A stretch of DNA of 64,000 nt from a bacterium (GCA_037140955.1 JBAXDL010000005.1:12334-76333); one strand, 5' to 3'. Shown: positions 22,550 to 59,162, counted from the stretch's first letter. Notes: generated by a model from the sequence alone, not told the origin. A program made the numbers and translations.

Positions 22550-23368
22550 CTTGCCATTTTTGGCATGATACATTTTTTTGTCAGCAATAGCAATTTCTTC
22601 TGATATGTCATTATCTTCGTTGAAGAGATGAATTCCAATGGAGATTGAAAGTGGAATTTCTTTTTGTTCATAAAAGAATCTAACACTTTTGACAGAATTG
22701 CTTATTCTGTTTGTCAGTTCTGTTACCTTTTTCGTGCCAGCTTCGTTGACTTTCTTTTCCTTGTTGAATGTCATTGGCTTTACTGGAATTACCAAGAAAA
22801 ACTCATCTCCTCCAATTCTGAAAAGTCTGTCCTCACTTCGTACATGCTCAGAAATGATCTTTGTAATTGTTGTGATAGCAGCATCGCCCGCATTATGTCC
22901 AAAAACATCATTGATGTGCTTTAACTTATCAATATCGAAGAATAAAAAATATAAGTCCTCTTGATGTCTCTTGGCTCTTGCGGATGATTGTCTGATGGTG
23001 TCGTGCAACAAAACTCTATTATATGCACCCGTCATTGAATCTTTGATTGAAAGCTCTTCTAGCTTTATCTGCAATTCCTCCAGTTGAATATTTTTCTCCC
23101 TTAATTCAATGTTTACTCTTTCAAACTCAAAGTAATCCTGCATTACGATTGTTGACTGCTGAGAAATTTTCATAAACAAAACAAGAGAAAAAATGCCGGT
23201 ACAGAAAAGTTTTGATTGCCAATTTTGTAATTGAGTCATGATATAAAAATGACCATGAAACACTGAAAAACCAATAATTAGGGATAGTGCAATTTGAATA
23301 GCAAGCCTATTCCTGTTTGAAAGTGAAAGTACCCACCAACGGCTAAGTGACAGTAGAATTCTATTCAT
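22547..23368 (-). CDS. membrane-anchored diguanylate cyclase (GGDEF domain with RxxD I-site)
   Basis: N-terminal TM helices, coiled coil, 'RSEDRLFRIGGDEFF'. Confidence 0.85.
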   Translation of the reverse strand: MNRILLSLSRWWVLSLSNRNRLAIQIALSLIIGFSVFHGHFYIMTQLQNWQSKLFCTGIFSLVLFMKISQQSTIVMQDYFEFERVNIELREKNIQLEELQIKLEELSIKDSMTGAYNRVLLHDTIRQSSARAKRHQEDLYFLFFDIDKLKHINDVFGHNAGDAAITTITKIISEHVRSEDRLFRIGGDEFFLVIPVKPMTFNKEKKVNEAGTKKVTELTNRISNSVKSVRFFYEQKEIPLSISIGIHLFNEDNDISEEIAIADKKMYHAKNGK

Positions 23369-23532
23369 GGCTCAATGGCCCTCCTTTTTTAAATAACTCA
23401 TAATAAGTGATATCTAAATATAGTAATTTTTCTTCGTCTTGTCAATAAGCAATGATTAATTGTTTTTGACTTTTTGCCTTGTTGGCCTTAGAATAAGGTT
23501 ATTGATAAGGTAATGTTAAATAAAAAATACCT

Positions 23533-27032: not shown

Positions 27033-27226
27033 AAGAAAAAAAGGATATTTTTTCATCCCAAAACAGTCAGAACTTTCAAGTCCGGCTGTTTTTTTGTCAG
27101 CTATTGACAAAAAAATAATATGTGTTAATATAATTTGAAATCAAGAGAGATTAATTTTGGCTCTAAATTTATGAAAACAAGCTGTTTCTGCCGGAGGGGA
27201 GATGCAAACTTTGTTTATACTGACAA

Positions 27227-28291
27227 ATGGAAAAAATAACAGATAAAAACAGCCAAGCAGTTGAGTCTGAAAAGGCGATATTTTCAGATGCACTGAAAAG
27301 TACCGTGAAAGATTTTTCACAAAGAAGTCAGGAGATAATTTTTTCTCGCTGGGGGGTTTTCAGTTCTCATTCTTTGACTTTGGAAGAGATTGGAAAAAAA
27401 TATCAAATTACTCGTGAGAGAGTTAGGCAAGTTATTCGCGAGGTTTTGAAAAAAGTTAAAGAAAAAAAGGATCAAACTGTTTTTCGTGAAATAGAAGAAA
27501 AAATTATTTTGGCGCTTAGAAATAATGGTGGTATAATGGAGGAGCAAAAACTTTTGTCTGTGCTTGTGGGAAAGCAAAAAAGTGAGCAAGCAGCAGTTTC
27601 ATTTTTTCTGGAATGTTTTGATAGTATTTGCAAAAATCAAATCAAGGGAGAACTTAAAGTTGCATATTCTTTGCCAAGTTTTGAAATTGAAAAATGGCGA
27701 AATGTGAAAAATGATTTGATTTTGGTTTTGAAACAACAGGCAAAACCTCTTTCAGTTGAAAAACTTTTTGAACTGACAAAAGCAAAGTCTGGTGAATTTG
27801 ATTTGAACATTGAAACATTCACACAATATCTTGAAATTTCAGAAGAGATCAAACAAAACACTTTTGGAAAATGGGGAATTGCAAAATGGAAAGAAATTTC
27901 TCCAAAAGGAACGCGTGAAAAGGCTTATCTTGTTTTGAAAGAGGTAGCCAAGCCTTTGCATTTTCGGGATATTGCCAAAAAGATTGATCAATATCATTTG
28001 AACAAAAAGAAAACTCATGCTCAAACAGTGCACAATGAATTGATCAAGGACAAAAATTTCGTGTTGGTGGGAAGGGGGATCTACGCGCTGGTTGAATGGG
28101 GATATCGCAGTGGAACAGTCAAGGATGTGATTGAAGAGATTTTGAAAAAAAATAAGGCTCCACTCAGCAAGGAAGAAGTACTAGAAATGGTTTTAAAAAT
28201 CAGACGTGTGAAAAAATCGACTATTGTGATAAACTTGAATAACTACTTTGCCAAATCAAAAACAGGCACATATTCAATTAAAAAATCTTAA
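27227..28291 (+). CDS. DNA-binding protein with N-terminal sigma-70 region-4 HTH and C-terminal HARE-HTH domain
   Basis: 'LTLEEIGKKYQITRERVRQVIREVLKK' (sigma r4-like); C-terminal 'FVLVGRGIYALVEWGY' matches the HARE-HTH motif (RpoE-delta N-domain type). Confidence 0.6.
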   Translation: MEKITDKNSQAVESEKAIFSDALKSTVKDFSQRSQEIIFSRWGVFSSHSLTLEEIGKKYQITRERVRQVIREVLKKVKEKKDQTVFREIEEKIILALRNNGGIMEEQKLLSVLVGKQKSEQAAVSFFLECFDSICKNQIKGELKVAYSLPSFEIEKWRNVKNDLILVLKQQAKPLSVEKLFELTKAKSGEFDLNIETFTQYLEISEEIKQNTFGKWGIAKWKEISPKGTREKAYLVLKEVAKPLHFRDIAKKIDQYHLNKKKTHAQTVHNELIKDKNFVLVGRGIYALVEWGYRSGTVKDVIEEILKKNKAPLSKEEVLEMVLKIRRVKKSTIVINLNNYFAKSKTGTYSIKKS

Positions 28292-34530: not shown

Positions 34531-34650
34531 GTTCTTATAAAGCAGTCTCAAGAAAAAGAGGCTGCTTTTGTTTTGTAAGAAAAATTGATATACTGTTGAC
34601 AAAATCATTAAAACAAGGTATAAATCTCAATACCAGCTAAACTAAACACA

Positions 34651-34740
34651 GAAAGGGGGAAGATGAGTTGTAACTTAAAAAAAGGGGGAGGATGCATTGA
34701 AATTGGCGCTGTCAAAAAAGAAAGGGGAGGTTATGATTAA
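34651..34740 (+). promoter_or_regulatory. leader with three tandem strong SD sequences and a 25-codon uORF that overlaps the main start
   Basis: aaagggggaagATG (34663), aaagggggaggATGcatTGA (34692), aaaggggaggttATG (34733); the uORF stop TAA at 34738-34740 overlaps the main ATG. Confidence 0.45.
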
Positions 34741-35770
34741 CATTGATTTGGATATGGGCATTCACACCATGCGAATGCCACATGGAATCAAGAAGCTTTT
34801 TTTGGATATGATCCAATCATTGGACATTACCCAGGGAAATTTTAAGATTCACTTGGGCAAGAACATTCGAGGAGTTAGTCAGAAGGGTATAAAATTCATT
34901 AAGGTTCTGCCACAGTATTGCGCCATTTGGGTCAAGGCGCAGCCTTCCGGCAAGGAAGGCCGTCATGAATGCACGGTATATTTTCCAGATATTTATAAGA
35001 ATGATCTTGGAAAGTTTGGCGAGCTTCTGCAGTCAAAAGTTGGTCAGGAAGATTGGGCTGATGAAGAGGTTATTCCTGAAGAGGAAATTGCTACAACTAT
35101 GGATGATGTTAAAGCTACCATAATTGATGTTGAACATGTTGAGAATGCTATTATTAGACAGCAACAATATCAAGCTGAAGCATTAATCTTGAGTGCGGAA
35201 ATGCTATCTCTCATTGTCGGTGATATTTTTGAAAAAAAAGGCACTGGCTGGATTTTCAAGAGTGCATTGTTCAAGATTTTGAATAATTTGAAACTGCAAT
35301 ACGCTACTAATAAGTTGATTGGAAGACTTTTCCATTTGGGATATCTTGAAAGAGATCCTGAGAATCTTGAAAAAAGAAGTCGACTGACTCAATCGGCATG
35401 TCTGCTTATCAATGCTCCGATCCCGCTTGACACTGGACACAAGATTGTCATTGGAAGTAGTGAAGATGACTTGAAAGTTTATAATGCTGTAGATTTTCTT
35501 CGAAGGTCGAACGCAATTTATAAAAAGCTTTTAATTAATCAGTCAAAGGCTTTTGATGAACTCGAAAAGCTTAAGTGTGCCGATGAGAAATTGCAAAAAA
35601 GAATCTCACGTCTTGCGGAATTGATGGAAGTGAAGATGCAGGAAAATCTGGTCATGATTAATGAAAAAAGTCTTGAGATAGAAAAAATTTCACAAGGCAT
35701 AACGCCTCGCTTGATTGAGGCATCAAAAAGATTTGAGATTATTATGGCAGATGATCTGCCTCCAGAATAA
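34733..35770 (+). CDS. hypothetical protein
   Basis: 345 aa from an ATG with ideal RBS aaaggggagg; the track ORF begins at an alternative TTG (34697). Confidence 0.55.
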   Translation: MINIDLDMGIHTMRMPHGIKKLFLDMIQSLDITQGNFKIHLGKNIRGVSQKGIKFIKVLPQYCAIWVKAQPSGKEGRHECTVYFPDIYKNDLGKFGELLQSKVGQEDWADEEVIPEEEIATTMDDVKATIIDVEHVENAIIRQQQYQAEALILSAEMLSLIVGDIFEKKGTGWIFKSALFKILNNLKLQYATNKLIGRLFHLGYLERDPENLEKRSRLTQSACLLINAPIPLDTGHKIVIGSSEDDLKVYNAVDFLRRSNAIYKKLLINQSKAFDELEKLKCADEKLQKRISRLAELMEVKMQENLVMINEKSLEIEKISQGITPRLIEASKRFEIIMADDLPPE

Positions 35771-35792
35771 ATTTGTTTAATGTTTATTGTTA

Positions 35793-35827
35793 TAAGCGCA
35801 ACTAAAAAGTTGCGCTTATTTTTTTTG
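35793..35827 (+). terminator. rho-independent terminator
   Basis: taagcgcaact/agttgcgctta stem followed by a T9 run. Confidence 0.7.
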
Positions 35828-36410: not shown

Positions 36411-36439
36411 TTGACAATTTTACTAAAAAATGTTACTAT
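36411..36439 (+). promoter_or_regulatory. sigma70-type promoter (TTGACA-17-TACTAT)
   Basis: consensus boxes about 70 nt upstream of the M16 peptidase start. Confidence 0.5.
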
Positions 36440-36480
36440 TAAACGTCCTAAAAAGGATTGTTAACTTAAAAACCCAAAGT

Positions 36481-47548: not shown

Positions 47549-47636
47549 AAGGATAGTCTATAAAGTCAAAAGTCTATCAAGTCCATCAAGTTTTTTTAAA
47601 TGGGTGCTTTATGGACTTTTAGCTTTTTGCTTTTAG

Positions 47637-52144: not shown

Positions 52145-52366
52145 ATGTCACAAACAGAAAGAGAAAAGGGGTATGACAAATTCATTGAAAAGCTGCATCA
52201 AGGTTGCTCAAGTAATTTTAGTATCATTGAGTGTTCACATTCTGGAGAAGTTGAAATGTCAAAAAGGGATAATCCATTTCGACCTGACAACTTGACTGAT
52301 CACTTGAATTCATTTGCAAAAAGAAATGGTCTCAAGAGTTTTAGTGTAAGCAGTACGTCACAATAA
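52145..52366 (+). CDS. small hypothetical protein
   Basis: 73 aa; strong RBS aaaaaggaggtag. Confidence 0.45.
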   Translation: MSQTEREKGYDKFIEKLHQGCSSNFSIIECSHSGEVEMSKRDNPFRPDNLTDHLNSFAKRNGLKSFSVSSTSQ

Positions 52367-52442
52367 AAAGGAGGTGGAACAGTTTTTATGCACATTGGCG
52401 CTGGATATTATTTTTCTTTTTAAAATGAAAAAGGAGAAAAAC

Positions 52443-52769
52443 ATGAAAAAAGTTATCGTGAAAGGTTCCATTTCTGAATTGCTTGCCGTTGTGGCCAAAG
52501 ATGGTTGCAATGGGAACGTGAGAGATCTTTGCAAGGCATTGCCTGAAAAAGTCTATTGTCATCACATGAAACAATCAATTCCACTTTCTATTGCACCAGC
52601 ATTGACACCTCATCACAGCAAGCATCTTGATTTTTCGCAGCATCTTGTGTGTGAGGTTGACTGTGGTCGCTCTTGTCAATCCTATAACATCAAGGGAATG
52701 ACAGTTAGTGAAATGGTCAAAATGGATCACTTTCCGCTTGAAAATCATAACTCCGACATTTTTGCTTAA
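52443..52769 (+). CDS. small Cys-rich hypothetical protein
   Basis: 108 aa from the ATG with aaaaggagaaaaac RBS; 7 Cys and several His. Confidence 0.45.
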   Translation: MKKVIVKGSISELLAVVAKDGCNGNVRDLCKALPEKVYCHHMKQSIPLSIAPALTPHHSKHLDFSQHLVCEVDCGRSCQSYNIKGMTVSEMVKMDHFPLENHNSDIFA

Positions 52770-52828: not shown

Positions 52829-52852
52829 TGAAAGAGCCATTTTTTGATAATA

Positions 52853-52879
52853 TTAGCACTCGGACTTGACGACTGCTAA
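52853..52879 (+). promoter_or_regulatory. CIRCE operator (HrcA binding site) upstream of hrcA
   Basis: TTAGCACTC-N9-GACTGCTAA (one mismatch in right arm); overlaps the -35 box and precedes TATAAT at 52889. Confidence 0.8.
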
Positions 52880-53001
52880 TCGATGTAATATAATACAGAT
52901 ACTAAGAGTCCATAAAGCTGAAAGTCGAAAGCAAAAAGCATATTAAGAAGTATTTCTTGCTTTAAGGACCTTATAGACTTTTAGCTTTAGACTATTTTTT
53001 T

Positions 53002-59113: not shown

Positions 59114-59135
59114 AAACGGCTCTTTTTTGAAAAAA

Positions 59136-59162
59136 TTAGCACTCAGTCATGGGGATTGCTAA
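59136..59162 (+). promoter_or_regulatory. CIRCE operator upstream of dnaJ
   Basis: TTAGCACTC-N9-GATTGCTAA, followed by a TATAAT -10 box. Confidence 0.75.

Follow-up and report, generated by a model that had tools for sequence, protein, structure and literature searches.

A multi-Shine-Dalgarno leader in an uncultured Moranbacterium as a candidate ribosome-loading platform

The locus and its transcription unit

The gene considered here encodes a hypothetical protein of 345 aa (34733-35770, plus strand) and lies in a 64-kb stretch of bacterial DNA with a G+C content of 36.9%; this whole stretch is called the window below, and all positions refer to it. The host is an uncultured Moranbacterium (CPR), as the PheT protein encoded in the window is nearest to those of Moranbacteria/Parcubacteria MAGs, with up to 70% identity. 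On the 5' side, the gene is preceded on the same strand by a gene for a 169-aa membrane protein, which ends in a predicted intrinsic terminator (34539-34568) consisting of an 11-bp stem and a T-run. This is followed by a sigma-70-type promoter, read as TTGACA (34596-34601), a spacer of 17 nt and TATAAA (34619-34624), and a second intrinsic terminator, with a 12-bp stem and T8, is predicted behind the 345-aa gene (35792-35819). A terminator scan found no terminator-like site between the promoter and the main ATG. Since the promoter is flanked by these two terminators, the 345-aa gene should be monocistronic, with a leader of about 100 nt. Thus, an independent transcription unit is predicted to begin after the terminator at 34539-34568, and the promoter match places the putative transcription start at about 34631.

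The leader is 70% purine and contains three Shine-Dalgarno (SD)-like tracts, the distances between which are 29 and 40 nt. The 5'-proximal tract, SD1 (AGAAAGGGGGAAG, 34650-34662), is followed at a spacing of 3 nt by ATG 34663, which opens an upstream ORF (uORF) of 25 codons (34663-34740; peptide MSCNLKKGGGCIEIGAVKKERGGYD, beginning MSCNLKK) that spans the other two tracts and stops at TAA 34738-34740. SD2 (AAAAAAAGGGGGAGG, 34677-34691) stands at spacing 0 from ATG 34692 and at spacing 5 from TTG 34697; the former opens a mini-ORF of two codons, ATG-CAT-TGA (34692-34700). SD3 (AGAAAGGGGAGG, 34719-34730), the predicted ribosome-binding site (RBS) of the main gene, is followed by TT and then by ATG 34733, so that the gap between GGAGG and the start codon is unusually short, namely 2 nt. 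The uORF and the main ORF overlap by 8 nt (ATGATTAA), and the uORF stop lies 5 nt past the A of the main ATG. In addition, two blocks stand out in the alignment of orthologous leaders described below: an A/U-rich block, GTAACTTAAAAAAA (34670-34683), which is the best-conserved motif inside the leader and keeps a TTAAAAA core, and the block GGCGCTGTCAAA (34705-34716), which reads GCGCAGTCAAA in most orthologues.

Most of this anatomy had been described in a first-pass annotation of the window, and the three strong tracts before ATG codons, the 25-codon uORF encoding SD2 and SD3, the two-codon mini-ORF and the 345-aa hypothetical gene with its start at ATG 34733 were all recovered in our analysis. 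Two details needed correction. The tracts had been described as near-identical copies of AAAGGGGGARG; all three are present, but SD3 has four Gs before AGG instead of five. Likewise, the TAA of the uORF had been placed on the main ATG; the uORF does overlap the main ORF, but its stop codon misses the ATG.

SD strength was calculated as the energy of the predicted duplex with the canonical anti-SD sequence CCUCCUUUCU, a tail that is assumed and may not be that of the host. The resulting values are -13.6 kcal/mol for SD1, -10.9 kcal/mol for SD2 and -11.8 kcal/mol for SD3. Sites at or below -10.9 kcal/mol number 26 in 128 kb (both strands of the window), and three of them lie within 70 nt here. 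Under random placement such a triple cluster has P ~0.004, and no cluster of this kind arose when the window was dinucleotide-shuffled 40 times; the clustering of SDs therefore exceeds chance. The same is not true of the uORF: an ATG uORF overlapping the main start occurs in 40% of dinucleotide shuffles of the window's leader, and the 25-codon uORF across the main start is thus a chance-level feature. Fusion of the uORF to the main frame by frameshifting or slippage at the A7G5 run was rejected, since the open stretch of the main frame begins only at 34679 and the orthologues have stops ahead of that point and no comparable run.

The leader is predicted to be poorly structured. Its shuffled versions have a mean minimum free energy of -19.8 kcal/mol, compared with -16 kcal/mol for the leader itself (z = +1.38), and folding is as good or better in 183 of 200 of them. 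RNAalifold found no consensus pairs in the seven orthologous leaders. A search of the whole window against Rfam 15 at gathering thresholds gave no match, and when the search was extended to E 10, only chance-level matches were obtained, none of them within the leader. Because there is no predicted structure, either singly or by consensus, and no Rfam match, an attenuator, a thermometer and a riboswitch are all unsupported: the first two were rejected for lack of predicted structure in the single leader and in the alignment, and a riboswitch or other known RNA element for lack of an Rfam match. The alternative structures sequestering SD3 that the first-pass annotation had envisaged did not appear in these predictions, nor did the leader show the alternative SD-sequestering or terminator structures of translation-attenuation leaders of the erm, cat or trp-leader type.

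The 345-aa product has an alpha/beta domain at its N-terminus, a winged-helix-like domain and, at the C-terminus, a long coiled coil. It has no family match in Pfam, NCBIfam, PADLOC or PDB sequences, and its fold matches indicate a winged helix with long helices and nothing further. Single-sequence and profile searches of 5.8 billion proteins yielded five distinct homologous proteins beyond the query's own cluster, a metagenome scan added one further orthologous locus, and the genome and viral collections contained no additional homologues. As every homologue begins with MI(N/D) or MVN, the start is set at ATG 34733. Public start calls differ on this point: ENA and JGI use TTG 34697 (357 aa), which lies 5 nt after SD2 in frame with the main ORF, and NCBI uses ATG 34733 (345 aa, MEI7890997.1). 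The N-terminal extension from TTG 34697 was rejected because it disagrees with the orthologue starts and in-frame upstream starts are not conserved.

Orthologous leaders

Seven leaders were compared, namely those of the window and of the loci L001, L002, L003, L005 (identical to L004), L006 and L087. They represent five independent lineages, with L002 and L003 near-identical. The identity of the encoded proteins is 36-54%, and the leaders, aside from the conserved sites, have a mean identity of 67% per alignment column. L002 and L003 have the same neighbours upstream as the window, namely genes for a Pif1-like helicase and for a small protein without annotation, and downstream neighbours, for example the tRNA methyltransferase and AlaRS genes, are common to L005 and L087. 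Note that codon 51 of the L006 orthologue (metagenome contig Ga0172380_10000184, 3001-4029) is an in-frame stop, inserted as an additional codon compared with the other orthologues; this reflects a pseudogene, an assembly error or read-through.

The promoter and the spatial arrangement of the leader are well conserved. The -35 element TTGACAAA is invariant in all seven leaders and is followed after 17 nt by a -10-like hexamer (TAAAAA, TATAAA, CACAAT or CAAAGT), and the length of the leader is constant at 100-106 nt. Every leader has a strong site equivalent to SD1, located 82-91 nt 5' of the main ATG (82 nt in the window) and approximately at +16 to +22 from the promoter-inferred start (about +20 in the window). 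The predicted energies of these sites are -12.3 to -15.6 kcal/mol for 10-mers and -10.6 to -14.5 kcal/mol for 9-mers. In a 9-mer scan with 500 dinucleotide shuffles of each leader, the strongest site was at the same place in every one of the seven, and sites of SD1 strength arose in just 0-30 of the 500 shuffles (0-6%) per leader. A second strong SD is found at the real RBS, again in all seven leaders, and in the orthologues it lies 5-10 nt 5' of the ATG. Between the two, the order after SD1 is an A/U-rich block (GTAACTTAAAAAA), a purine tract and the GCGCAGTCAAA block.

SD2 is strong in the window only. In the orthologues its place is taken by a weak tract (AGGAAGAAG, AGGAAAAAG or AAGAGG) or by none; this middle purine tract is missing in L005 and is without GGA in L087. 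SD1 and SD2 form a 22-nt repeat with 82% identity and a period of 29, which might indicate a tandem duplication. This candidate was rejected, however, because SD2 aligns with the ancestral AGGAAGAAG/AGGAAAAAG tract; given this position, sharpening of the tract by A-to-G changes is more likely than duplication.

The ORF that follows SD1 varies from leader to leader. Its length is 25 codons in the window, 6 in L006 (MSSNLKI), 4 in L002 and L003 (MEVV) and 3 in L087 (MVF), and L001 and L005 have no start codon after SD1 at all. These peptides bear no relation to one another, and they are read in different frames with respect to the conserved DNA motif. The check for conservation of the uORF and its codons, as proposed with the first-pass annotation, thus came out negative (lengths 25/6/4/4/3/0), and the conserved peptide or regulatory codons expected of an attenuation leader are lacking. 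The uORF as a genuine small protein was also rejected, as it is not conserved in the orthologues. In four orthologues (L002, L003, L006 and L087) the SD1 uORF ends 55-67 nt before the main ATG, and the overlap of its stop with the main start, which would be a conserved trait of translationally coupled uORFs, is present in the window only. Other out-of-frame uORFs do run across the main start in L005, L006 and L087; such overlaps arise in 18-40% of shuffled leaders when only ATG is allowed and in 47-73% when any start codon is allowed, and the observed frequency is 3-4 of 6.

Where a start codon is present, in five of the seven leaders, it is an ATG 1-7 nt after SD1, and in four of these five the spacing is 1-4 nt, which would often be too short for efficient initiation. 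With no start codon in two of the seven leaders, and with unrelated peptides and often short spacing in the others, it appears to be SD1 itself that is conserved, and not its coding content; the ATG common to orthologous leaders after SD1 may be mere inheritance. Judged from this comparison, the conserved entity is a two-SD leader, that is, a 5' orphan SD and a real RBS about 70 nt further downstream, and SD2 and the 25-codon uORF are recent additions specific to the lineage of the window. Neither the 25-codon uORF nor the triple repeat, which had been taken as the features to look for in orthologues, was found in them, but the two-SD core was. Accordingly, the idea that the leader is a regulatory architecture stands insofar as the multi-SD arrangement is non-random and seems partly under selection; a coupling or attenuation device, as originally suggested, is not what is conserved.

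SD usage and similar leaders in the window

The use of SDs is bimodal among 49 genes of the window: 10 have an SD energy at or below -8.8 kcal/mol, 36 are above -4 kcal/mol, and no gene falls between -8.8 and -5.8 kcal/mol. All the recognisable housekeeping genes of the window, namely those for SecA, SecDF, DnaK, DnaJ, DnaB, PheT, AlaRS, CysRS and MurB, are SD-less, and the SD-led genes are accessory or hypothetical. The latter have near-consensus TTGACA-17-TATAAT promoters and leaders of 48-136 nt, as read by eye in three cases. The neighbouring genes of the orthologues are similarly SD-poor. Some of the SD-less genes resemble leaderless genes in that just 6-9 nt separate a -10-like hexamer from the ATG (18339, 5839, 42504, 27227 and 35870).

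Two further genes of the window have leaders of a comparable layout. The hypothetical gene 1425 has a TTGACA-17-TATAGT promoter followed by AAAAAAGGTGGTGGTG, which includes a 5' SD-like tract (1321-1336), and by a mini-ORF of four codons, ATG-AAA-GAT-GCT-TGA (1339-1353). Further downstream, AAGAAGGGAAATG opens a 19-codon uORF (1376-1435) across the main ATG at 1425, and the gene's own SD is at 1408-1416. In a 90%-identical relative, L088, the promoter, the first SD and the ATG are present as well, and so is a mini-ORF of four codons, the codons of which differ; the central part of the L088 leader can no longer be aligned with that of gene 1425, and a uORF overlapping the main start is again found. 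The other case is gene 52443, which has an orphan perfect SD, AAAAGGAGGTGG, 77 nt upstream, directly after the stop of gene 52145-52366. Its uORF (52388-52423; 11 codons, MHIGAGYYFSF) ends in a TAA just 5' of the gene's SD, and its leader (region 52366-52445) has the 10-mer ATTGGCGCTG in common with 34702-34711. In genes 540, 15196 (minus strand) and 52145, by comparison, a predicted hairpin lies in the leader just 5' of the SD instead.

A profile of the seven leaders found no copy outside the family when it was run with nhmmer against 446 kb, and paralogous copies of the whole leader were therefore rejected. In a screen of the same 446 kb for dual strong SDs, the pattern occurred only in the 345-aa gene family and in gene 52443. 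The leaders at 1425 and 52443 thus look analogous, and not homologous, to the leader at 34733. Shorter elements are shared more widely. The motif TAACTTAAAAA has three exact copies in the window against 0.11 expected (511-528, 34670-34687 and 36462-36472), all on the plus strand and all in leaders of SD-led genes; besides the copy in the 34733 leader, they lie directly 5' of the SDs of genes 540 and 36508. The copy at 511-528, in the leader of a PRTase gene, is identical to 34670-34687 over 18 nt (GTAACTTAAAAAAAGGGG).

Two other leaders contain uORFs near the main start. On the minus strand, the leader of a GGDEF gene (23368-23400) contains ATGAGTTATTTAAAAAAGGAGGGCCATTGA, a uORF of 9 codons that spans the SD of the gene and ends 5 nt short of the main ATG; its DNA is similar to ATGAGTTGTAACTTAAAAAAAGGGGGAGG of the 34733 leader. 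In the sigma-like gene 27227, the leader (27104-27240) harbours a 22-codon uORF that starts at ATG 27171, contains GGAGGGGAGATG and extends across the main ATG, with TATACT, a second -10-like element, 6 nt ahead of this ATG.

Possible function of the leader

Our tentative proposal, to which we give a probability of roughly 0.42, is that the leader serves as a ribosome-loading platform that protects the 5' end of the mRNA in the manner of a STAB-SD, with SD2 and the long uORF as lineage-specific elements. According to this proposal, the unstructured, purine-rich leader of about 100 nt would load ribosomes onto the mRNA. SD1, at about 16-22 nt from the inferred 5' end and usually accompanied by a start codon and a mini-ORF of 3-6 codons, would bind ribosomes, and a 30S or 70S particle located there would cover the 5' end sterically and shield the transcript from 5'-end-dependent decay by RNase J. 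Ribosomes would also be kept concentrated on an mRNA that has to compete where most genes initiate without an SD. A start codon follows SD1 in five of the seven, so productive translation of the mini-ORF, and not mere binding, could be the important step. In the lineage of the window, the ancestral middle purine tract would have been sharpened into a third full SD (SD2), and loss of an early stop codon would have stretched the SD1 mini-ORF to 25 codons, so that the uORF now ends inside ATGATTAA. Ribosomes finishing the 25-codon uORF could then reinitiate at the main ATG, as a lineage-specific add-on. Coupling at ATGATTAA is plausible in the window genome, because SD3 is just 2 nt from the ATG, but it does not appear to be a conserved function.

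The STAB-SD of Bacillus thuringiensis cry3A was reportedly described by Agaisse and Lereclus in 1996. The word GAAAGGAGG, found in the orthologous leaders, is presumably the same as that of the cry3A element, and the latter presumably lies only a few nucleotides from the 5' end, with SD1 lying further away. In Bacilli, mRNA is stabilised by a strong 5'-proximal SD, which blocks RNase J1 and needs no start codon to do so (PMC4113751, PMC3997798), and 5'-terminal hairpins are the other classical type of 5' stabiliser (PMC4113751, PMC3997798, PMC5737220). Like the cry3A STAB-SD and the polypurine stabiliser of the phage SP82 (B. subtilis), each of the seven leaders has a 16S-complementary SD-like tract in the 5' UTR, far 5' of its own RBS. 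SD1 appears, moreover, to be conserved regardless of a start codon (two of seven are without), and RNase J is retained in the phylum, with rnj kept in at least 90% of CPR genomes (PMC12641178). The precedent in Bacilli, the occurrence of both 5' orphan SDs and leader hairpins here and the retention of RNase J in the phylum are the reasons why we favour a STAB-SD-like role. There are also differences: the host is a CPR bacterium instead of a Firmicute; the inferred 5' end near SD1 is a primary one, at a distance of about 16-22 nt, whereas that close to the STAB-SD of cryIIIA (cry3A) is processed (PMC4113751, PMC3997798); SD1 mostly has a start codon and a mini-ORF; the window genome has a third SD; and the stabilisation proposed here is putative.

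A strong 5' SD, here with a short leader ORF, is also seen in the RBS of the ermC/ermA leaders and in hbs and gsiB of B. subtilis, in which a ribosome at the SD protects the mRNA from 5'-to-3' decay (PMC3997798, PMC5737220). However, erm leaders encode conserved arrest peptides and form SD-sequestering hairpins, whereas the peptides of the 34733-family leaders are unrelated and no structure is predicted; in hbs and gsiB protection comes from the RBS of the gene itself, whereas SD1 is an orphan. In the same way, the uORF of the window, which ends in ATGATTAA, resembles coupled uORFs of the ATGA/TAATG type, which act by termination and reinitiation. Unlike in these, the overlap is absent as a conserved trait in the orthologues and occurs at the chance rate for the composition.

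This last comparison bears on the possibility that translation is controlled through the uORF, with the SD1-led uORF delivering ribosomes to the main start or gating it. An ATG follows SD1 within 1-7 nt in five of the seven leaders, the window uORF stops only 5 nt after the A of the main ATG, next to an SD3 at a suboptimal 2 nt, and out-of-frame uORFs across the main start recur in L005, L006, L087, gene 1425 and L088, all of which would suit such control. We nevertheless consider it rather unlikely as the general function, since the length of the uORF ranges from 0 to 25 codons with neither peptide nor frame conserved, the distance of 55-67 nt between its stop and the main ATG in four orthologues is judged too far for classical coupling, the overlap frequency of 3-4 of 6 equals the shuffle expectation, and a translating ribosome would find no predicted RNA structure to open. 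It is unlikely, too, that the leader acts purely as a standby site or enhancer, in which the SD-like tracts and the A/U-rich block (TAACTTAAAAAAA) would raise the local concentration of 30S without any effect on decay. The unstructured leader with its 70% purine content and the fact that the SD-led genes are a small minority competing for ribosomes are consistent with this, as is the recurrence of TAACTTAAAAA directly 5' of the SDs of genes 540 and 36508, given its resemblance to TTTAACTTTAAGAAGGAG of T7 gene 10. Yet SD1, at 82-91 nt from the start codon, is far away for a standby site, and what is conserved is how far it lies from the 5' end, a constraint not expected of a pure enhancer. The enhancer reading is otherwise compatible with the ribosome-protection explanation.

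The tracts may also be read without reference to the ribosome, or as having no dedicated function. CsrA-regulated leaders show several GGA motifs, and most of the leaders here contain at least three GGA purine tracts 20-70 nt apart, one of which overlaps the real SD, so that a CsrA-type or an Hfq-like (A-R-N repeat) regulator might bridge an upstream site and the SD. We regard this as highly improbable: no csrA or hfq (nor rnj) was found among the approximately 30 window proteins scanned, the hairpin loops in which CsrA sites typically reside are not predicted in the leader, the middle tract is missing in L005 and is without GGA in L087, and the extended match GAAAGGAGG pairs exactly with the canonical 16S tail. 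That the tracts arose harmlessly from the purine richness of the leader, or are left over from earlier starts, fits the recent, lineage-specific origin of SD2 and the long uORF, and purine richness does favour SD-like words, the strength of SD1 being reached in 17 of 500 shuffles for the leader of the window. It is very unlikely for SD1, the position of which is kept in five independent lineages at 36-54% protein identity, with a per-leader shuffle frequency of 0-6% and a leader length constant within 6 nt.

A broader version of the proposal would regard the orphan-SD/mini-ORF leaders at 34733, 1425 and 52443 as a separate class of SD-dependent accessory genes, that is, as an undescribed layer of control in CPR bacteria, in which the upstream SDs would be obligatory modules for ribosome capture and 5' protection. 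We consider the existence of such a class distinctly unlikely. With regard to 16S rRNA, an anti-SD motif was found in only 48% of the 16S genes of Parcubacteria (PMC9297842, Tsurumaki et al.). The Rfam scan found no rRNA in the 64-kb window. If the 16S tail were without CCUCC, the GAAAGGAGG words would have to be read by something other than a ribosomal anti-SD; a 16S 3' end of CCUCCUUUC together with rnj in the host genome would fit the ribosome-protection model.

CPR/Patescibacteria are almost all uncultured, and we found little published on their translation initiation or on the control of mRNA decay. What is new here is an orphan-SD leader, of a kind known from Firmicutes, in a CPR bacterium whose genes are mostly SD-independent. 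The locus offers a compact, conserved and testable example from the CPR, with an orphan 5' SD in a leader of 100 nt, and suggests that ribosome protection of the 5' end in the style of Firmicutes may operate where SDs are otherwise exceptional. If two initiation regimes do coexist in one small genome, this would bear on the selection of mRNAs by reduced ribosomes.

The A/U-rich region of the T7 gene 10 RBS acts as a translational enhancer. The block GTAACTTAAAAAAA immediately precedes SD2, as well as the SDs in the leaders of 540 and 36508, in a similar way to TTAACTTTA in the T7 gene 10 leader and to bS1-binding leaders, although in the orthologues it precedes a weak purine tract and not a functional RBS, and the likeness is one of sequence only. 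In particular, the T7 gene 10 RBS sequence is TTTAACTTTAAGAAGGAG (PMC3934309), and TAACTTAAAAA/GTAACTTAAAAAAAGGGG resembles the region TTAACTTTAAGAAGGAG of that RBS.

In practice, gene callers can be misled by multi-SD leaders, as the choice between TTG 34697 and ATG 34733 illustrates. Another start in the window may need revision: the M16 peptidase ORF is listed from ATG 36430, but a promoter (TTGACA-17-TACTAT, 36411-36439) lies inside this longer ORF, and the start is most likely ATG 36508, which has AAAAAGGAGG 6 nt upstream. Finally, a CIRCE-like half-site, TTAGCACTC, lies 5' of hrcA (53002) and dnaJ (59149), at 52851-52878 and 59120-59148, respectively, and a repeated TAGACTTTT-GCTTTAGACTAT-like motif abuts the ATGs of hrcA (52965-53001) and of gene 47548 on the minus strand (47549-47585).
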